From Eledone cirrhosa (taxonomy: Eukaryota): a stretch of 64,000 nucleotides of DNA. Every line of letters begins with the position of its first letter. The stretch's first letter is position 1. Made by a program: the position numbers and the translations under genes. Below, piece by piece: positions 10,747 to 47,674 of this stretch. The stretch is from positions 249,178,001 through 249,242,000 of the forward strand of contig OZ024740.1 of NCBI GenBank assembly GCA_964016885.1. The letters are read 5' to 3'. The notes below the pieces were generated by a model. That model was not told the DNA's origin. It was given only the letters and a program-made list of their open reading frames with translations, and made no database searches.

Positions 10747-13700
10747 ATGACCTCACTCAGAATAGGCAGCATAAATGCGCGTGGTTTGGGGTCGTTATGG
10801 AAGCAGGGCCACCTGCTCAACGACCTCAGGTCACTAAACATAGATGTAGTGGCCATCAGCGAGACCAGAATATCCGAAGCACGGGCCTTCGCACCGATCT
10901 TCGGCGGCTACGATGTGTACGCATCTCCCAGCCGTCCGGGATCGGGGGGAGGAGTTGCTGTGCTTTTTCGGAGAGGTTTGGATCTTGCCATACGGGCCAT
11001 CTTCCTGGACCCAGAAGGTAAGTTGGTGGTGCTGGACGTGACCAGCGGAGACGGGCAAGCTTTCAGGTTAGTGGCCGTCTATGCCCCGACAGGAGCAGGG
11101 CGGCCTGATTTCTTCCGGCGTCTGGAGACCTTTCTTGGAACATCCGCTCTTTAGTGTTAGTGGGCGACTGGAACGGGATCTTAGATGCACGCTGGGATTG
11201 TGTGGGATTAGTGGATAGGGAAGGAGGGTACAAGAGTCTCACCAACCTGCTCAGACGTTTTGAACTGTCTGACAGGTACCGAATGGATTTCCCGAATGTA
11301 CCAATGTGGACTTGGACAAATCGCATAGGGTCATCCAGATCATATCTAGATAGAGTATTTTGTAGGGAAATAGATAGGTCTAGCATAGGCTGTCCACAAT
11401 TCAAGATAGTCAGCTACACGGACCACAAATTCGTGATCTGTGTGCTTGACTTAGATAGGCTTCATGGACGAGGACCCGGCTACTGGAAGCTAAACGCGTT
11501 CTTACCAGCGCGCAAGGCCTACGGATCCGAATTAGCGAACTAGTTAAGCGGTCGTTGACGGGGGCCATCGTCAACAACAAGTGGTGGTTTGCTCTGAAAA
11601 GAGCAATTAGAATAGAGTCCATTAGGTTTAGTAAGACTTTAGCAATAGAGAAAAATAGAGCAGAGGGAGAATTAGTTAGAAAATTAGATGAGGCGCTTAG
11701 CAAAGGCATCGCGATCGACGTACTTGCGGCGAAATTGGCCCTTGACCAATTCTTCAATGCAAAGCACGAAGGCTGCGTTGTCAGAGCTAGGGTGCGTGCT
11801 CTCAGACACGAGGGGACGAAAGCCGTTCAATGGGCCCGAGTGGCGGAGGCGCGTCGTGGCAACAAAGCCACGATCCGGTCTTTGGTGGACCACGACGGGC
11901 GCATGCTACTCGATCCCGGGCAAATGTGTGAAGCTTTTCAGCGACACTTCGTTCAACTGTTCGGGGGCAGTGGCGGGCCGGATCGAGGGATGGACTTTAG
12001 TGTCTACCTCGACGGACTGCCGCGGCTTTCGGCCACTGAGGCGGAGTGTTGCGAAAAGCCGATAACAACCGCTGAAGTACGGGAGGCAATGACTGGCTGC
12101 ACAAGGGGTAAATCGCCTGGTTTGGATGGTCTGCCCTATGAACTTTACGTACAGATGCCAGACTTGTTCGGAGGCCTCTTGGCGGTCGTCTACTGCAACT
12201 GGCAACAGAACGGGAGAATTCCCAGTTCTGTGAGCCGAGGAGCGGTGGCACTGCTGAGAAAGGATACGAACAATGGGGATAACATAGATAATTTCCGGCC
12301 CATAACTCTGCTAAACACAGGGTTCAAGATTTTGGCCAACGTGCTAGCAAAGAGGTTGGCGCTTGTCGTTGGTGGTCTGGTGGGAGAGGTGCAGACATGT
12401 GCCATTCCCGACAGATCCATCCACGACAACCTCCACCTCATGCGATACATCGTAGAGAGGGTAGCTAGGGAACCTGGCACGGGTGGGTCCTTGATCAATT
12501 TAGATCAGTCGAAAGCTTTCGATAGGGTCGACCATCGTTACCTAGCGGCAGTCCTGAGGGCGGCTGGCTTTGGGCCCGTCTTCAGAGGCTGGATCGCTGC
12601 CATGCACAGCGACATCTGCTCTGACGTGAGAGTGAACGGTCACCTTTCGGAACCGTTCAACATCATGCGCTCAGTCCGCCAAGGATGTCCCCTCTCGTCC
12701 CTATTGTACGTATTGACTCTCGAGCCATTACTGCACAAACTGGAGACGTTGAGGGGGGTCCCGCGCGAACTAGGATGCGGAAGATCCGTGTCAGCATATG
12801 CCGACGATGTCACCGTAGTGGTGTCGAACGCCAAACACATCGAGGCGATCGGCACTACACTAAGAGAATACGAAGCGGTGACAGGAGCAATGATCAACCA
12901 GGAAAAGTCAGTGGGCCTGCAGCTCGGCACCTGGAGAGGCAGGTCCATGCCGTCCAACAGCGTCGTCGGGCGCTGGACGGACGGACCGGTTAAATTGCTA
13001 GGGGTCTGGTTCCGTCCAGACCTCCAGACGGACAAAAACTGGGACGAGGTAACGAGCAGGGTGGCTTCTCTCACCCAGAAATGGGCCGAGAGGAAGCTAA
13101 CCCTGAAAGGTCGAGCGGAGGTGGAGAATGCGTACATCGCATCCGTCATCTACTACCGCCTGACCGTCGTACCTTGTCCTAAGCCCCGCCTGACTGCGCT
13201 GGAGCGTTTGCTCTTTCGCTTCTTGTGGAAGGGACGCGCTCCGATGGTCAGGTGGTCCATATGCTGTCAACACCCGCTACGTGGAGGGCTGGGCATGCCG
13301 TGGTTGATGATGCGCAGACACGCGCTCAGGCTACCACATCTCCACCTCTTCCTCGACGGTGATCAGGTGTGGTCGCCGTTTGCTAGACACGTTTTTCCCC
13401 AGCTCGTCTCCTTGACGGAGCTGCAGTCCTGGGTCAAGCGAAGACCGAGAGGGAGCGCTTGGAGACTGGAATGTCTTCAGGCGCTCACAGCCCTCGACCA
13501 ATCGGGCAATGTGATCGGTGGAAACTCCACCTTGGCGTTCTATAGGGGATTAGTGGAGGGGAAGAGCGACGACGTACTTGGAGAAACTCTAGGCGTCGAC
13601 GAAAATCAACTAGCCAATCTCTTCGGAAGGACTTTCGGGCCGGGGCCTATGGACAACTTCCAGAAATCCCTGGCCTGGCAGTGCTATCGGGGAGCTTTGC

Positions 13701-18997: not shown

Positions 18998-19058
<61 letters not shown>

Positions 19059-22860: not shown

Positions 22861-23231
22861 ACAATATTAAATAAATGGAAACTATATTTATAAAACCATA
22901 TTTATTTCATTATATATATTTCGGGGATATCATATTAACAATATGCTATGCCTTCCTCAGACAAAATACAATATAAACAGTTTTATAGATAAATAGATTC
23001 GACATACCGTAACAACACCGACTTGCATTTGAAGAGGTTGAGCTGGCAGCTCAACCTCTTCAAATGCAAGTCGGTGTTGTTACGGTATGTCGAATCTATT
23101 TATCTATAAAACTGTTTATATTGTATTTTGTCTGAGGAAGGCATAGCATATTGTTAATATGATATCCCCGAAATATATATAATGAAATAAATATGGTTTT
23201 ATAAATATAGTTTCCTTTTATTTAATATTGT
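22861..23231. repeat. Near-perfect 371-bp palindrome of a Naiad-family pLTR, centre 23046, hammerhead in each arm (22903-22968 minus, 23124-23189 plus)
   Basis: gagctg-g-cagctc at the centre. Plus arm: ttg t CTGAGGA ... catatt gtt aatatg ... GAAA tata TA taat. Tail shared with 31875-31915. Confidence 0.8.
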
Positions 23232-23361
23232 AAATATACTCCAAATATTTGTCGAGTGCTTTTATATCAGTTATAAATATTTACTAGTTGTAACCTAACA
23301 ATTTTAAATATAACTTTCCATGTATATATATATATATATATTTATTAAAATAACAGATTAA

Positions 23362-23650: not shown

Positions 23651-29257
<5,607 letters not shown>

Positions 29258-29507
29258 ATAATAACACATTTGAAGACTAAAATCCAAAGAGGGCTAGATA
29301 AGGATAAATATATATCAGATATATAAGAACCGTAGAGCAAATAACAGATTATAGTTTAAGCAAAGAATCGCTGCTTTCACCCTTAAATTTTAATATTTAT
29401 ATATATATATATATTCATATATATATATTTCTGAGTTCAGGATAATAAAGGCCTGAGTTCATATTCGAAGTTGGAATTATCTGTTTTTTCATCTGATTTT
29501 CTATCGA

Positions 29508-31915
29508 ATGGAATTCTTTAGGATCTCTTCTTCTCTAAAAGACATACATCTACCTAAGAATAAGGACTATCTCAAACAACTCATTGAGAAATCTGACTCC
29601 TTTATAAGAAGACTTAGATAGCGTGCCTTCCATTTCGATAGAAAATCAGATGAAAAAACATAATTCCAACTTCGATATGATCTTCAAATTCAAGAAAAAT
29701 CCACCTAACAACAAACTATTAATGGAATTTGAAAATGAAATAATATCAATTATACAAAACATCAAATTCAAGAAAAACCATTTCGCAGGCCAGGAATATC
29801 TTAAAGGCCTTAAGAATAATATAGAAAATCTTGAAAAAACTAATATCCTCGTTAAATCCTCGTAAAATATCCTCGTAAAATCTGACAAAACTAACAATCT
29901 ATACGGAATGCAAAAGGACGAATATAGTAACCTTATATTGAAAGAACTAAGGAAAAACAACAACCAATGAAGACCTCGAAATGCTAAATAGAAAAGATTC
30001 TGAAATAATTCATAAATTAGGCATCGAAAATAGGACCGAACATAGAAAACCAAAAATTAACCTGAAAGACCACAAAAGAAATTTTGAAATAGAACTACCA
30101 GTTAGACTTATAGCACCATCTAAATCAGACTTAGGCATAGTTAGTAAACATATATTAGATAGAATCATACCGCAACTTAAAGAAATATCTTACTTAAAAC
30201 TATGGAAAGGTACTAACGAAGTTATAGATTGGTTCAATAACATAAAATTTAAACATAACAAAAAATTCATTCACTTGGATATTGCAAATTACTACTCATC
30301 TATCACTCCTAATTTACTTAATAAAGCCCTTATCTATGCATCCAAATATACTGATTTATCTAGTGAAGAAATGCATATGATTTTAACTGCACGAAAAACC
30401 TTAATTAAATTTAACAACCATCTCTGGACTAGAGCGGATAGAATAAATAATTTCGACATCACCATAGGGTCATCGGGCTCGGCGCAGATAACGCATCTTG
30501 TGGGGCTATTTATTAATAATATACTACATAGAAAACTACCGGAGATGACCGGTGGTTTATATCGTGATGATATGCTGCTGTTAAATGAAAATAATAGTAA
30601 TTGTGAAATAAATAGAAAAAGAAAATCAAAAATACAATTTTTTAATAGCTACAATCTTAAGTTAGAAATAGAGAATAACTACAAAATTGTTAACTTTTTA
30701 GATGTAACATTAAACCTTAATACAGGGCTCTACTATCCATTTCATAAAATTAATGAGAACTTAAACTATATAAGCTTCAACTCTAATCATCCTAGATCTA
30801 TTAAAAACACTATTGTAAATTCTGTACAACAACGTATTTCTCGAATCTCTGCGAATAAAAACATATTTGACGATACGGCAGAATATAATAATGAAGCTTT
30901 AAGTAGAGCAAGCTATATAAATAAAATTAAATACATCGAAAACAATGATAAGATAAATAACCATAATATTAATTATAATTATAATAAGAAACCTAACATA
31001 AACTCTAATACTAATAGAAGGAATAGAACTAGAAATATAATTTGGTATGCACCTCCATTCTCACTAAGTATTAAAACACCTTTAGCTAAACTATTTTTTA
31101 AAGCTCTAGATAAATGTTTTCCCAAAACCCATAGATACCATTCAATCTTTAACAGACATACAATAAAACTATCTTACTCTACTACTATGAACTTAGCACA
31201 AAATATAAATAGAATCAATAATAGAAATCTAAACCATAACCAAAATAGCACTAATACCTCTAGCAATATCCAACTTAATAATACCGTTCCGAATAACATC
31301 AACTCTGCTAAATGTAACTGTAGAATTAAATCAAACTGTCCTTTAAAAAATAAATGCTTAGATAAAGATGTCGTCTATAAATGCTCTGTCAAAACTAATG
31401 ACCATATATTTAACTATATAGGTTCTACTTCTACAGACTTCAAATCTCGTTTCAATAATGACAAATGCTCGTTTAATAATATTGGTAAAAAATCTTCAAC
31501 TTCTCTATCAAACCTGATATGGAACTTAAAATCTAAAAGTACAGACTATTATTTATCTTGGGATGTAATTTCAAAAGCACCTGCCTATAGAAACACAGCT
31601 TTATCTAGATTTTGCAAATTGTGTGTTGATGAAATTTTCTTTATACTCCCCCAGCGTAATTTAAATAAACGGTTGTTTTTTCAATTTTGCATACATTCAT
31701 TTGCATACTCACACATAACTTTGAATTACCCCAAATAAGTTTCCACTATCTAGCGAATTTCGGACCGTTAAGGTGTGATTTCCATGGGTATGTCATTATT
31801 TATAAAAAAAATGTTGTATTTTATCTGATGAAAGCGCACCAAGTTTGGCTTGGTCGCCCTTGAAATATATATAATAAAATAAATATGGTTTTATAAATAT
31901 AGTTTCCATTTATTA
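29508..31915 (+). mobile_element. Naiad-type Penelope-like element (RT plus GIY-YIG), disrupted N-terminus, 3' pLTR with hammerhead
   Basis: N-terminus SLKDIHLP..YLKQLIEK..FIRRLR*RAF. ORF 29981-31738 has LKDHK, VRLIAPSKSDLG, DIANYYSSI, GLYRDD, CNC..CPL..C and VVYKC..YIGST..FKSRF. Confidence 0.88.
31817..31881 (+). ncRNA. Type I hammerhead in Naiad pLTR
   Basis: tta t CTGATGA aag..accaag tttgg cttggt..ctt GAAA tata TA taa. Confidence 0.7.
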
Positions 31916-31929
31916 TTATCTTGGTATAT

Positions 31930-32035
31930 ATGGAGACGCAGGACACGGCAGCGATGATGAGGGACAGAGACCGCTGGAGAGAACTCGTCCATGGATCTCG
32001 GGAATTTTACCCGCCTTATAATAGAATAGAATATA
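31930..32035 (+). mobile_element. Short RTE-like 3' end with (ATAGA)n tail
   Basis: Encodes MMRDRDRWRELVHGSR, typical of an RTE C-terminus, followed by atagaatagaat. Confidence 0.45.
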
Positions 32036-32049
32036 TAATAATAATACTC

Positions 32050-32420
32050 TCTGAAAACTAGGAATAGACCATTTACACTGCAATGGGAAGTAGTAGGTAG
32101 GGCCTCATCGTATAAACCACAGAATAAATTGTGTAATCTCTGTCTTTTAGAGACCTATACTATAATCTTTTCGAAACTAGACCTCCTTAATAGAAAGTCA
32201 GAGACATTTTCCTCGTGCCAACACCGATACCGTCACTCGTTCCATAACTTTAGACCTAGCTGTTAGTATATATCAATGTCAGATTTGAATTCCCCACCAC
32301 CATTAACACTTCACATCTAGGACTTATCAGCCTCCACAGCTACACACTCTTTGATCAGCTCTTTCCTCCACACAACACTTTGGTATCTCTAACATTATAC
32401 TCTGCAATAACTGTTAGAAT
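32050..32420 (-). mobile_element. Decayed CR1/L2-type APE endonuclease fragment
   Basis: Minus-strand LMVVGEFKSDIDI resembles the GDFN motif. Confidence 0.3.
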
Positions 32421-32865
32421 TAAACATAAAGTTGCCACCTTTTGGTATAACTAATATAGCTTAATTCTATTATATACAGTAATGAATATTTAATATGTAA
32501 AGACATTTAATGTAATATATAATAATAAACTATATATACATTTATATAATTAAATACTTAAATTAATAACATGTATATAAGGGATCTACCTTTAACACAA
32601 TGTAATAATAATAAAGTATATATACATTTATAATTAAATATATAATGTAATAGCATTGTATATAAGGGATTAATTTTTAAACAATAATGTATATTATTAC
32701 ACAAATGATATATCTATTTGGACATATAAACAGCTATACAATTTTCCATAACATATATCTTGTCCAGTAATGAATAGATAACAATCTTAAGGGACCTTTA
32801 ATGTATTAAAATAAAATACACTGTATTTAAAATCAAGTATAAATGTTTAGCATTATGTAATAGAG

Positions 32866-32974
32866 TTCAAATCCCGCCGAGGTTGACTTTACCTTTCATC
32901 CTTACGGGGGTCGATAAAATAAAGTACCAGTAATGCACTGGCTAATTGCTGGCCTTGTGCCTAAAGTAGAAACA
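32866..32974 (+). mobile_element. 5'-truncated SINE family A with 14-bp TSD
   Basis: TSD attatgtaatagag at 32852-32865 and 32975-32988. Confidence 0.85.
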
Positions 32975-33703
32975 ATTATGTAATAGAGATTCAATTGTAT
33001 CACATTATAATGTGTATTAGAGCAAAGATTTTGAATAACTGAATTTAATTAGCTAGTTACCTCCCCTTACGCATTAGCTCCCCTTACTCACTTCCGGAGA
33101 TTTAACCGTTGGAAAACCTATCTGTTGAACAACTATAGTCCATGAATAAGAATACAATAAGACTAATTTACAATCCATTGCTTTAACTAACATAAACATT
33201 CAATATAAACATTAACTAAAATATAATTCAACATATGTAATGGAAGAGACTGCAATAACTTTATTCTCCTCAACACACACAAATTCAAAAACTATCAACA
33301 TACTACGTCCACCATAGATTTTAATACACTACATGTTTGCTTAAAATACAGTATTTATTTATCTATATATGCATAATAACTTTGCTTATTTCCTTCTCAA
33401 ATATATGACTAACGCATGTACACTTTCTACACACCTGCATATGTATTGCTAATGTACTCTTTCTTTCTCAAAGCTCCTTTCTCAATGCCTCTTTAATTAT
33501 TAGACTATTCTCTTGTATTATCTGTTGCATGTATTCCACTCTGCTTTTAATTTGAATTTGAATGTTTGTACAATTCTCGTAAATTATATGTCACATCCAT
33601 TCCACCCTTTAAATACGAAACTGTTGCTCACAACATCAATATATATGTATCTATATTATTGTTCAGTTGAATAGGAGGTTAATTACATGACCAAAACATT
33701 GAT

Positions 33704-33755
33704 AATGCTCCGATGACTACAAATGAGAGTTTGGAAGAAACGATTGTCAGCTATT
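33704..33755 (+). ncRNA. Hammerhead-like motif with CCGAUGA core
   Basis: aatgct CCGATGA ctacaaa tgagag tttggaa GAAA cgattg TC agctatt; followed by a (TA)n tract. Confidence 0.55.
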
Positions 33756-33788
33756 AAATGATTTGAACACAAATTTGATAATTGTCTA

Positions 33789-33900
<112 letters not shown>

Positions 33901-34163
33901 GGAAAAAATGAAACGAAATTTCATTTCTCACTCTTAGTAGGGCTATTACTTAAATATAAGTATGTATACGTACATACATATATGTATACAGACGTATAGT
34001 AGTATGTATATATATACATACATGCACACATATATATATATGTACGTATGGATTCACCGAACATTTATTATAATGCTCGGTGTGTTTGTAAACAAACATC
34101 CCGAATTAAGCCGTACAGTGTCTAGCAAACATCGTTGCTCATTTGTTCAACCCTGACAAAGGA

Positions 34164-34206
34164 ACGCTGTACTAGTTTCAAGCTTATTAGCTATCGTCAG
34201 CAACGT
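34164..34206 (-). ncRNA. Minimal type I hammerhead (family of 22527)
   Basis: acgttg CTGACGA tagc taataa gctt GAAA ctag TA cagcgt. Confidence 0.75.
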
Positions 34207-34459
34207 ATACCTTCCTGCCAGATGATTGAACGTCTGAAAGTATATACTTTCCTTATGCATATTAACGGCTGAGCAGCCTAATTTGCATATCGAGTGAGTT
34301 AATCGGCCGGGGTACCGAAAACGATAAACGGAAAAAATGAAACGAAATTTCATTTCTCACTCTTAGTACGGCTGTTACTTAAATATAAGTATATATACGT
34401 ACATACACATATGTATACAGACGTACAGTAGTATGTATATATATATATACATACTACTG

Positions 34460-34492
<33 letters not shown>

Positions 34493-35035
34493 ATATGTGT
34501 AGGTGTGTATATGTATATATTTAAATATGTTCTACAGATGTATTTTTTTGTGGTTTATGCTTTGGATATATTCCAATGAATGAAATTTTTGAATTTTTTG
34601 AATTTTTTAAATGCTAACACGTTATAGAAAAAAAAATTAGGTTTTAACAGTCATAACTGTATGACAGGTTGAGTTATGATTTTATAACTTGATATAACAT
34701 AACATAAAATTCATGCTATAATTACACTAATGGATAATTAAAAATGTTTAACATCTTAACTTTATAACATTTCTTTTAACATCTTAACTTTATAACATTT
34801 AACTTTATAACATTTAATCCTTAGAGCTATCTTAATAATTATTATTGATCGTTAGCAATTTCCTTACGCTCTACTGCTATTACATATAAGTGATTATTCT
34901 TCGGCAAACTTTCATAAATTCCATGAGCTTAGAAATATTCGAATATTTTAAACTTAAACATTTTTTAAAATAATTAATTAATTAATTAATTAATTAATAA
35001 TAATAAAATTATATTTGTTTTTTTTAATAATAACA

Positions 35036-35780
35036 TTTTTTAATAATATATATTCTTTAATAATAATATATAGGTCTCAACTTTAATAATATAACATACA
35101 CATTTAAACATTTAAACTACGGATTGAATTGATAAATTATTAATTAAACATTTAATCAAATTTATTAATTAAACATTAAATAAATTCTTCAACTTAGCTT
35201 TATCCATTTTTTATTAGTATCTGTTATTGGTTGTTATTAGTATTCATCCACGCTATATTCTCTCTTCGCATCCTCCCTCAAAATTACGCTATTCTCACTC
35301 ACTAAAATATACTCAGGTTTCTCTCTTTCTTTCTTTCGTTTTTCCCTATTCCAACGGCTTAATTTAAATATACTGTTTTTTAATAATATATATTCTTTAA
35401 TAATATAATTTTGAATAATATATATTCTCAAATAATAATAATATAATATAACAAACACATTTAAACATTTAAACTACGGATTGAATTGATAAATGATTAA
35501 TTAAACATTTAATCAAAATTATTAATTAAACATTATTAATTAAAAATTAGATAAATTCTCCAACTTAACTTTATTATTGTTTTTATCCATTTTATCCATC
35601 TGTTATTAGTTGGTATTCATCCACGCTATATTTATTTTCTTCGTCTTTTCTCTCAAAATTACGCTATTCTCTCTCACTAAAATATACTCAGGTGTCTCTC
35701 TTTCTTTCTTTTTTTCCTCCGATTTTTCTCTTTCTTTTCTTTTTTCCCTATTCCAACGGCTTAATTTAAATATACTGTTT
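35036..35780. repeat. AT-rich tandem duplication (about 340-400 bp) upstream of a Naiad-family pLTR
   Basis: 35036-35375 recurs at 35376-35780, e.g. aaactacggattgaattgataaa and cctattccaacggctt. Confidence 0.65.
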
Positions 35781-35931
35781 TAAACCTTTCCAATACTAAT
35801 TTGCATAATAAACCAACAATAAATCTAATAACTCCACTATCCAGGAGATTCCAACCAGAATGGTTGCATTTTTAAGGGTATGTCAATATTTATTTATAAA
35901 ACTAACCTATATTATATTTTATCTGATGAAA

Positions 35932-36124
35932 AAGGGGCGGTGGATTGGCAGTATCGGTGGAGTGTCGGACGCCATGCTTTCCAGCATAGTTACGTTGCTT
36001 TGAGATCTGAGTTCAAATCCCGCCGAGGTTGACTTTGCCTTTCATCCTTACGGGGTCGATAAAATAAAGTACCAGTAATGCACTAGTTAATTGCTGGCCT
36101 TATGCCTAAAATAGAAACAATTAC
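35932..36124 (+). mobile_element. SINE family A inserted at a hammerhead core, 16-bp TSD
   Basis: TSD attttatctgatgaaa at 35916-35931 and 36125-36140. Confidence 0.88.
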
Positions 36125-36189
36125 ATTTTATCTGATGAAAGCGCACCATAGTTTGCTTTGGTGGCCCTTGAAATATGTATAATGAAATA
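36125..36189 (+). ncRNA. Type I hammerhead, Naiad pLTR family
   Basis: tta t CTGATGA aag..acca..tggt..ctt GAAA tatg TA taa. Confidence 0.68.
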
Positions 36190-36248
36190 AATATGATTTT
36201 ATAAATATAGTTTCCATTTGTTAATATATTGTATATATATATATATAT

Positions 36249-36290
<42 letters not shown>

Positions 36291-36413
36291 GAATATAGAC
36301 ATAGAATATTCGAAAATATTCTGTATGTTTATAATAAACATTTTGAAGACCTAATCGCTATAGAATAGAATACGTCACGTATTACAATTAGATTCTCGAT
36401 AAAAGCAAGGGAA

Positions 36414-36456
36414 GTAATCTACGCGTTTCATTCTCGTTAGAACTCATCAGGACTAC
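36414..36456 (-). ncRNA. Hammerhead in the inverted partial unit (36291-36556)
   Basis: Exact reverse complement of 36663-36705. Confidence 0.85.
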
Positions 36457-36556
36457 ATATCCAGTGCTTTTATCGAGAATGACACAGCTAGAGACTTATA
36501 GAATACTTAGCTGTGTACAGGAACTGGTTTGAAAGAGCGGTTGCCGGTCCGGCAGA

Positions 36557-38103
36557 CTAATTTCTGCCGGACCGGCAACCGCTCTTTCAAACCAGTTCCT
36601 GTACACAGCTAAGTATTCTATAAGTCTCTAGCTGTGTCATTCTCGATAAAAGCACTGGATATGTAGTCCTGATGAGTTCTAACGAGAATGAAACGCGTAG
36701 ATTACTTCCCTTGCTTTTATCGAGAATCTAATTGTAATACGTGACGTATTCTATTCTATAGCGATTAGGTCCTCAAAATGTTTATTATAAACATACAGAA
36801 TATTTTCGAATATTCTATGTCTATATTCACATATATATCGCTATTTCAGAGCATTTATTCCAATTTCTAATTTCTGCCGGACCGGCAACCGCTCTTTCAA
36901 ACCAGTTCCTGTACACAGCTAAGTATTCTATAAGTCTCTAGCTGTGTCATTCTCGATAAAAGCACTGGATATGTAGTCCTGATGAGTTCTAACGAGAATG
37001 AAACGCGTAGATTACTTCCCTTGCTTTTATCGAGAATCTAATTGTAATACGTGACGTATTCTATTCTATAGCGATTAGGTCTTCAAAATGTTTATTATAA
37101 ACATACAGAATATTTTCGAATATTCTATGTCTATATTCACATATATATCGCTATTTCAGAGCATTTTTCCAATTTCTAATTTCTGCCGGACCGGCAACCG
37201 CTCTTTCAAACCAGTTCCTGTACACAGCTAAGTATTCTATAAGTCTCTAGCTGTGTCATTCTCGATAAAAGCACTGGATATGTAGTCCTGATGAGTTCTA
37301 ACGAGAATGAAACGCGTAGATTACTTCCCTTGCTTTTATCGAGAATCTAATTGTAATACGTGACGTATTCTATTCTATAGCGATTAGGTCTTCAAAATGT
37401 TTATTATAAACATACAGAATATTTTCGAATATTCTATGTCTATATTCACATATATATCGCTATTTCAGAGCATTTTTCCAATTTCTAATTTCTGCCGGAC
37501 CGGCAACCGCTCTTTCAAACCAGTTCCTGTACACAGCTAAGTATTCTATAAGTCTCTAGCTGTGTCATTCTCGATAAAAGCACTGGATATGTAGTCCTGA
37601 TGAGTTCTAACGAGAATGAAACGCGTAGATTACTTCCCTTGCTTTTATCGAGAATCTAATTGTAATACGTGACGTATTCTATTCTATAGCGATTAGGTCT
37701 TCAAAATGTTTATTATAAACATACAGAATATTTTCGAATATTCTATGTCTATATTCACATATATATCGCTATTTCAGAGCATTTTTCCAATTTCTAATTT
37801 CTGCCGGACCGGCAACCGCTCTTTCAAACCAGTTCCTGTACACAGCTAAGTATTCTATAAGTCTCTAGCTGTGTCATTCTCGATAAAAGCACTGGATATG
37901 TAGTCCTGATGAGTTCTAACGAGAATGAAACGCGTAGATTACTTCCCTTGCTTTTATCGAGAATCTAATTGTAATACGTGACGTATTCTATTCTATAGCG
38001 ATTAGGTCTTCAAAATGTTTATTATAAACATACAGAATATTTTCGAATATTCTATGTCTATATTCACATATATATCGCTATTTCAGAGCATTTTTTCCAA
38101 TTT
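36557..38103 (+). repeat. Tandem array of five 309-310 bp hammerhead-containing units (retrozyme-like)
   Basis: Unit starts at 36557, 36867, 37176, 37485 and 37794; units near-identical; ends in (TA)n. Confidence 0.93.
36663..36705 (+). ncRNA. Minimal type I hammerhead; identical copies at 36973-37015, 37282-37324, 37591-37633, 37900-37942
   Basis: gtagtc CTGATGA gttct aacg agaat GAAA cgcg TA gattac. Canonical core, palindromic stem III ACGCGT, GUA site. Stem I is extended by a perfect 16-bp helix (36639-36654/36712-36727). Confidence 0.9.
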
Positions 38104-38119
38104 ATATATATATACATAC

Positions 38120-38152
<33 letters not shown>

Positions 38153-38269
38153 CATATTTATATAGATACATACATATATATATATATACATACATATATA
38201 TATATATATATAATTACATACATATATATACATATATACATATATATATATACATATATATATATATAC

Positions 38270-38341
<72 letters not shown>

Positions 38342-46630: not shown

Positions 46631-47674
<1,044 letters not shown>

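Follow-up and report, generated by a model that had tools for sequence, protein, structure and literature searches.

A young hammerhead family forms mirror-image arrays in Eledone cirrhosa, probably inserted by PLE machinery copying circular monomers

The hammerhead array in a 64,000-nt stretch of the Eledone cirrhosa assembly (contig OZ024740.1; hereafter the window) is probably one insertion of a young, protein-free family of 310-nt units, laid down as a palindrome in (AT)n by a Penelope-like element (PLE) reverse transcriptase, likely of the Hydra clade, that copied one predicted circular monomer for many laps from both target strands. The family (hereafter family A) is over a thousand young insertions, mostly mirror-image, and on its sequence features it is a real, young non-LTR retrozyme family, with cleavage predicted. 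Below we establish the architecture and copy numbers of the inserts, their two end sites, the single haplotype of each insert, the lack of a stop at the cut site and the conservation of the fold.

The window array is one arm of a palindrome

A sequence-only reading of the window had described five tandem hammerhead units at 36557-38103, and TRF bears this out (period 309, 5.0 copies, 99% matches). The five cores are identical, and the predicted cuts fall where that reading had placed them, after 36699, 37009, 37318, 37627 and 37936; the resulting spacings of 310, 309, 309 and 309 nt agree with its monomer length of 309-310 nt. The usual unit of the family is 310 nt, against mostly 309 nt in the window array, and its GC content is 108/310 (~35%). 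Unit positions are numbered after the copy at 36866-37174, with the predicted cut after unit position 144.

Absent from that reading were a sixth core and an inverted arm, which make the insert a head-to-head palindrome within (AT)n. The inverted arm matches the unit at 99.3% over 276 nt (BLAST), and the palindrome is perfect over 36348-36771, with 209-bp arms around a 6-nt central spacer. The array is not uniform: at unit position 302 the direct unit nearest the centre departs from the other four. Rfam miRNA matches below gathering level at the window are explained by the palindrome itself. The features of the locus are as follows.

36224-36289, no strand: (AT)n target, left (TRF)
36281-36556, minus strand: inverted arm, 5'-truncated, unit positions 8-283 (BLAST); its outer end is the 'short' end site, followed by (AT)n
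36420-36450, minus strand: sixth hammerhead core, in the inverted arm (exact core match; Rfam HH9, 18.6 bits)
36557-38103, plus strand: direct arm of five tandem 309-310-nt units, starting at unit position 2 and stopping at the 'long' end site (308-310)
36557-36562, no strand: 6-nt spacer at the head-to-head junction, the palindrome centre
36639-36727, plus strand: type I hammerhead of unit 1, alike in all five units, predicted cut after 36699 (fold, covariation)
36669-36699, plus strand: hammerhead core 1 (core match)
36979-37009, plus strand: hammerhead core 2 (core match), predicted cut after 37009, unit position 144
37288-37318, plus strand: hammerhead core 3 (core match)
37597-37627, plus strand: hammerhead core 4 (core match)
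37906-37936, plus strand: hammerhead core 5 (core match)
38076-38103, plus strand: ~25-nt 'tail' (unit positions 284-309) on the outer end of the direct arm, missing from the outer end of the inverted arm
38103-38339, no strand: (AT)n target, right (TRF)

A young family with two fixed ends

In the 3.0-Gb assembly a 17-nt unit motif is matched exactly at 19,020 places and the hammerhead core pattern at 11,756 (controls 0 for both), and the units total ~6 Mb of the genome. Counting exact junctions between unit and (AT)n gives 1,046 for the long end and 1,239 for the short one (controls 0), a lower bound on the number of inserts. Many units at separate loci are identical, so the family is young. 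Two older sister families share the whole unit: family B, with 5,489 matches of its tail variant, occurs mostly as one or two units in inserts of the same two-end layout, and family C is the other.

To describe the inserts we used three samples. The first held 20 stretches from a DNA search, two being distant relatives, and the second the first 16 loci of contig C1, of which 12 were two-armed, one of these interrupted by a gap. Together with the window these gave 37 loci, 25 of them two-armed and 24 with both ends visible (one was cut by the N gap). The third, a test sample, comprised 80 fresh stretches chosen only by their long end and in list order; it covers 81 of 100 listed long-end rows, the 13 from earlier samples and the last 6 being excluded.

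All 24 evaluable two-armed loci of the first samples ended at ~274-283 on one arm and at 306-315 on the other. In the test sample 75/81 clusters were head-to-head and none was tail-to-tail, and each of the 73 complete two-armed inserts had a short end opposite a long end. The inserts thus have two fixed end sites, ~25 nt apart, one per arm. The short end can be placed no more precisely than 274-283 because the unit itself is an AT run there; at least 3 further AT pairs lie beyond it in 66/73 inserts, the long ends having been selected for AT.

This layout is that of PLE inserts, in which a 5'-truncated copy lies inverted and just one of the two ends bears a tail, given as 30-40 nt (PMC8557442, PMC3846280). 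In the anole PLE (PAc), both target strands are cut and extended and the tail is the stretch between two internal start sites of reverse transcription (PMC11167929). Because two fixed ends, an inverted arm and a one-sided tail match the PLE layout, insertion by PLE machinery is very likely for family A. The PLE-driven origin that the sequence-only reading had proposed for the array is supported in the same way, by an inverted arm and a tail in 73/73 complete two-armed inserts. Fold-back of sequencing reads is not the cause, since such artefacts are mirror-identical and would yield equal ends, not ends at 283 and 308 with different flanks; expansion by the assembler is unlikely for the family.

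The hammerhead fold is conserved

The hammerhead of unit 1 comprises a 16-bp stem I extension, internal loops, a 6-bp stem I, the core, stem II and a palindromic 2-bp stem III. The stem I extension, already noted from the sequence, is a perfect self-match of unit positions 84-99 with 157-172. The hammerhead region has a fold z-score of -5.5, with 0/200 shuffles equally stable, and the monomer folded as a circle reaches z = -4.8 (0/100 shuffles equally stable). All hairpins that had been listed are present in the circular MFE, two of them with 3-nt loops in place of the 1-nt loops first given. The ribozyme had also been called canonical; core and stems are indeed found in all six copies, but the word is too strong for a stem III of 2 bp closing 2 nt. 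The suggested Infernal search against Rfam turned up nothing at gathering level, its only match being Hammerhead_HH9 at the six cores (18.6 bits, E 0.36).

In an alignment of 14 natural copies, 21/58 consensus pairs are altered on both sides among the three subfamilies, counts that represent three lineages only. The two-sided changes include 7/13 pairs of the stem I extension, plus stems I and II. The C3-G8 core pair is U-A in both subfamily C copies, one of which has another core change, and stem III keeps a palindromic or near-palindromic sequence in each of the three subfamilies. Covariation across these three lineages thus supports selection on the predicted fold. Three family C copies (L082:2295-3060, L032:2802-2971 and L118:653-799) have U3-A8 as a core pair and a palindromic stem III of 12 nt.

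In co-fold prediction stem III pairs between two molecules. The axolotl HHR_Amex1, which likewise has a weak palindromic stem III, cleaves well only as a dimer (PMC7229834). From the weak stem III of family A we infer that it would cleave as a dimer, through palindromic stem III pairing.

Each insert carries one haplotype

Both arms share the diagnostic haplotype in 22/23 informative inserts of the first samples (shuffled mean 3.4, maximum 11) and in 65/67 of the test sample (shuffled mean 10.5, maximum 23), in support of the monomer template that had been proposed from the window. The 71 multi-unit inserts of the test sample hold 28 haplotypes, 20 of them seen once, and 63/71 are uniform arrays. 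Thirteen variants each occur in a single insert and there in every unit that covers the site, 11 of them on both arms (for example, 25/25 units). Variants at unit position 31 have 16 matches genome-wide, of which 7 fill both arms of one locus, 3 lie in the inner units of a single arm, 5 are isolated units and 1 is a junction. One base variant, seen at one position genome-wide, is present in 7/7 units across the two arms of a locus and otherwise in a single unit at another site.

The arms are long. In the test sample their medians are 983 and 1,215 nt and their maxima 5.9 and 8.5 kb, so that each arm runs for up to ~27 laps of one 310-nt unit. Most exceed the limits that a linear cut monomer would set (139 and 165 nt; 70/73 and 69/73, respectively), and both arms are longer than 620 nt in 54/73 complete two-armed inserts. 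Inner junctions are not enriched at the predicted cut site (4/146 against 3.3 expected, pieces shorter than 25 nt being invisible). The enrichment that two loci had prompted us to consider was not seen; these are L040, with an inner jump at that site, and L037, with the end of an arm there. The same L040 locus has a 43-nt duplication with its joint at the predicted cut site.

One haplotype per insert, long arms and no stop at the cut site together point to a closed monomer copied for several laps, and the inserts are likely to derive from single monomer circles, the circle being predicted. Four sequencing runs, of unrecorded kind, each gave one 340-nt contig (310+30) with one haplotype; a tandem DNA array gives the same, so these contigs speak neither for nor against expression.

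Eight of the 71 test arrays are non-uniform, with variants in 2 to n-1 units. Inner and outer haplotype blocks occur in L236, L262, L040, L215-217 and L219; together with the window difference at unit position 302, such blocks suggest template switches or re-priming within an older array. Variants repeated at a distance in the long arrays L225, L226 and L248 and two-unit blocks in L214 point to DNA-level duplication or multimeric templates. L262, L219 and L040 are symmetric mosaics, their outer units of one haplotype and their inner units of another on both arms, and may reflect re-priming inside an older palindrome. L041 holds two near-identical arrays 5.4 kb apart that have a single-unit variant in common, a segmental or assembly duplicate.

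Linear templates and later expansion

The serious rival to a circular template is an uncleaved linear multimer, with the same PLE machinery and two start sites and with parent arrays homogenised by DNA turnover. It would also account for long arms, a haplotype common to both arms and the lack of a stop at the cut site, and the repeated variants in L225, L226, L248 and L214 fit it as well. Circle copying also has to be squared with the anole PLE, whose main substrate in vitro is uncleaved RNA and whose hammerhead mutants insert normally (PMC11167929); with the 8/71 non-uniform test arrays and the window's own non-uniformity at unit position 302; and with the partner PLE considered below. The weak stem III could, moreover, leave many transcripts uncut. 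A linear multimer would, however, require a separate long uniform parent for each of the 28 haplotypes in 71 inserts, and its arms could only shrink with each generation, yet they reach 8.5 kb. Of 48 single-unit variants in the first sample only 3 turn up again at another locus, which in one case is a segmental duplicate. We therefore consider a linear template unlikely, though it deserves to be taken seriously.

Less probable still is that PLE inserts of one or two units were expanded later by unequal exchange, slippage or the assembler. The longest arrays do contain clear DNA-level duplications, inserts of the older family B mostly hold one or two units, and Li et al. 2026 propose local amplification (bioRxiv 10.64898/2026.07.22.740005). 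Both arms are nevertheless multi-unit in most inserts of this young family (54/73 above 620 nt on each side), and 135 single-unit variants have not spread, yet 63/71 arrays are uniform.

Non-autonomy and the candidate partner

The family had been read as non-autonomous, and the sampled loci support this: none has a unit linked to an ORF, and none holds an ORF with RT and GIY-YIG within the element. That the unit is simply the pLTR of an autonomous PLE, with the inserts as its 5'-truncated copies, is barely credible, even though the layout equals that of truncated PLE copies and a young Hydra family (L097-L126) yields many palindromes of its terminal repeat only: the 73 complete two-armed inserts consist solely of units, the inner end of 4 single-armed ones abuts (AT)n, the two nearest same-strand ORFs are set apart from the units by (AT)n and another element's arm, and all 16 genome-wide matches in which the leader hairpin is followed by a different base remain inside arrays. 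We also rejected an ancestral form whose ORF opened with an ATG at the presumed former start, no ORF there exceeding 72 aa in the 30 of 64 loci examined.

We also considered as autonomous parent a family (D; L047:2690-2895, L145-L174) with a core like that of family A, and rejected it, as 30 loci showed no linked ORF. Family D forms ~200-nt young head-to-head inserts with a long-stem-III hammerhead (1,022 first-look candidates). Its core and stem II nearly match those of family A while the rest is unlike, and its inner junctions cluster just upstream of the core; the core likeness is possibly a module exchange.

Several PLE families are present in this genome. One element (L129:1013-5448) is full-length and intact, with a 738-aa ORF, a partial tandem, an inverted arm, a tail of ~80 nt and (TA)n targets. 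It is very young, its copies being identical over 261 nt at 16 places, and its inserts have the head-to-head layout of family A. The motifs RWR (RWK-like), DKT and CxCX5C, given for the Hydra clade in PMC8557442, were read from its translation, and its assignment to that clade is by motifs. Organism-named homologues of a resident PLE protein come only from Argonauta (36-41% identity). Further long Hydra-type ORFs lie in L134 (772 aa) and L140 (821 aa).

The family A unit has no significant similarity to the terminal repeat of L129, and the tails differ (~25 against ~80 nt), a point against L129 as the partner in circle copying. Similarity to the L129 leader was equalled by 4/1000 shuffles for family B, 13/1000 for family C and 834/1000 for family A, in 12 post hoc comparisons, with an nhmmer E of 2.9; the likeness of B and C to the leader and first codons is weak. 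On visual inspection, a small RCTC...GAGYRCT hairpin directly follows each start site in several Hydra leaders, and GCT...GAGCA stands at the matching position of the retrozyme tail. A Hydra-clade PLE is the likely partner, and young intact elements such as L129 are unproven candidates for it. A chimera of a Hydra arm and a retrozyme arm (L051), the one direct join to family A in the locus set of one search, was rejected as proof of partnership: the insertions were probably sequential, since many young copies are identical to its Hydra arm whereas its retrozyme arm shows 95% divergence.

Neighbouring elements

The (AT)n that received the window insert is provided by the 3' end of a decayed Hydra-type PLE at 29505-36223. 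Its ORF fragments (29505-31738) match L129 at 58% over aa 145-724, and it has minimal hammerheads at 31825 and 36132. Pfam returned no family for the three window PLE fragments. Inside the decayed element's hammerhead lies a SINE-like insert (35932-36124) flanked by 16-bp direct repeats (35916-35931 and 36125-36140). A second PLE-like ORF at 24739-26450 (minus strand) is, judging by its motifs, presumably Neptune-like, and near it, at 22900-23250, a Hydra terminal repeat forms a perfect palindrome in head-to-head orientation. Another hammerhead family is present at 46640, 47665 and 48147, with one copy on the plus strand and two on the minus strand, all next to long (AT)n tracts; it occurs in L045 too. 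A further palindromic element with a minimal hammerhead core (L062:4470-5300) adjoins a family A insert.

A>G variants

The idea came from the first samples, in which 12/16 variants fixed in one insert, against 1/38 single-unit variants, were sense-strand A>G changes. The test sample gave 4/13 fixed and 10/135 single-unit variants (Fisher p 0.022), and pooling gave 12/25 against 11/173, with 2 T>C and 1 C>T. One insert accounts for four of the fixed A>G variants and an older subfamily for several, and in the test sample alone the strand asymmetry is not significant (4 vs 2). RNA editing before reverse transcription is a lead only for this excess; tolerance of G-U pairs is an alternative, although it should favour C>T as well. 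In the fold, 13/16 A>G sites are paired (p 0.11). An ADAR neighbour preference was also tried and dropped: 0/16 A>G sites follow G when site 146 is omitted (background 18%, p 0.045), and significance is lost once that site, which follows G, is counted.

A tentative and rather doubtful extension would have both strands of the cut (AT)n prime one PLE dimer on one ribozyme-made circle, 25 nt apart, each jump thereby writing a palindrome of several kb; long dsRNA from read-through of the palindromes would be edited by ADAR, and the edited monomers rewritten as new uniform arrays. If this were true, A-to-I editing would be a main source of heritable change in the element.

Discussion

We propose the following cycle for family A. 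The array would be transcribed, and hammerheads pairing through their palindromic stem III would cut as dimers after unit position 144, the monomers then being ligated into circles. A PLE protein, perhaps a dimer, would cut both (AT)n strands, and reverse transcription would begin internally, at ~274-283 on one strand and ~308 on the other. Both cDNAs would go several laps and be joined at random far ends, giving tail-out palindromes of 0.2-10 kb, some of which may be altered later by template switches or DNA-level duplication.

Retrozymes, retrozyme circles and the PLE hypothesis are already in print (PMC7229834). Family A resembles the metazoan non-LTR retrozymes described there (newt satellite 2, axolotl Rtz331/353, mussel and coral) in its tandem, protein-free, low-GC units of ~300 nt with a type I hammerhead, in its weak palindromic stem III and in sharing its genome with PLEs; unit length and GC content fit the non-LTR retrozyme range (150-450 nt, GC below 50%). 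It differs in that most of its inserts are palindromes joined head-to-head, with both ends fixed and lying in (AT)n, whereas the main text of that paper nowhere uses the word 'inverted', and in being known from sequence alone, whereas expression and cleavage were demonstrated there. The available text leaves the mobilising element and priming open (Cervera and de la Pena 2020, PMC7229834). Li, Clavereau and Pollet likewise argue for PLE origin and PLE-dependent mobility, from co-occurrence and pLTR homology in Xenopus, and favour local amplification (bioRxiv 10.64898/2026.07.22.740005); the available portion of their main text differs in having no inverted arms, tails, start sites or per-insert haplotypes.

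With EN+ PLEs (PMC3846280, PMC8557442) and the Anolis PAc (PMC11167929), family A has in common the head-to-head inverted 5'-truncated arm, the tail at one end and AT-rich targets, as far as these are set out in the available text. Unlike EN+ PLEs it lacks an ORF, runs for up to ~27 laps per arm and has a tail of ~25 nt instead of 30-40. Hydra-clade PLEs also target (TA)n (PMC8557442, section 11), and L129 has the same insert layout, but its hammerhead and ~80-nt tail are unlike the family A unit, only B and C being weakly similar to its leader and first codons. The Chlamys element MRC1 offers a parallel of non-autonomous PLE derivatives in multicopy head-to-tail inserts, in a green algal clade whose canonical hammerheads are mostly missing (PMC8557442). 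Our literature search, which covered subscription papers poorly, found no paper on head-to-head retrozyme arrays with PLE tails, on per-insert haplotypes or on a cephalopod retrozyme, and the available main text of a 2026 Octopus repeat annotation has neither 'ribozyme' nor 'retrozyme' (PMC13282606).

When rolling-circle reverse transcription by PLEs was proposed in 2020, enzyme and priming were unknown (PMC7229834). The present family gives that proposal a countable genomic footprint: reverse transcription from two start sites, both target strands as primers, a single template for each insert and copying that continues for laps beyond the cut site. RNA, target and candidate enzymes can now be named for a direct in vitro test. 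For the animal itself, these recent and nearly perfect palindromes, more than a thousand in number and up to several kb long, are a likely source of dsRNA, and of trouble in genome assembly.
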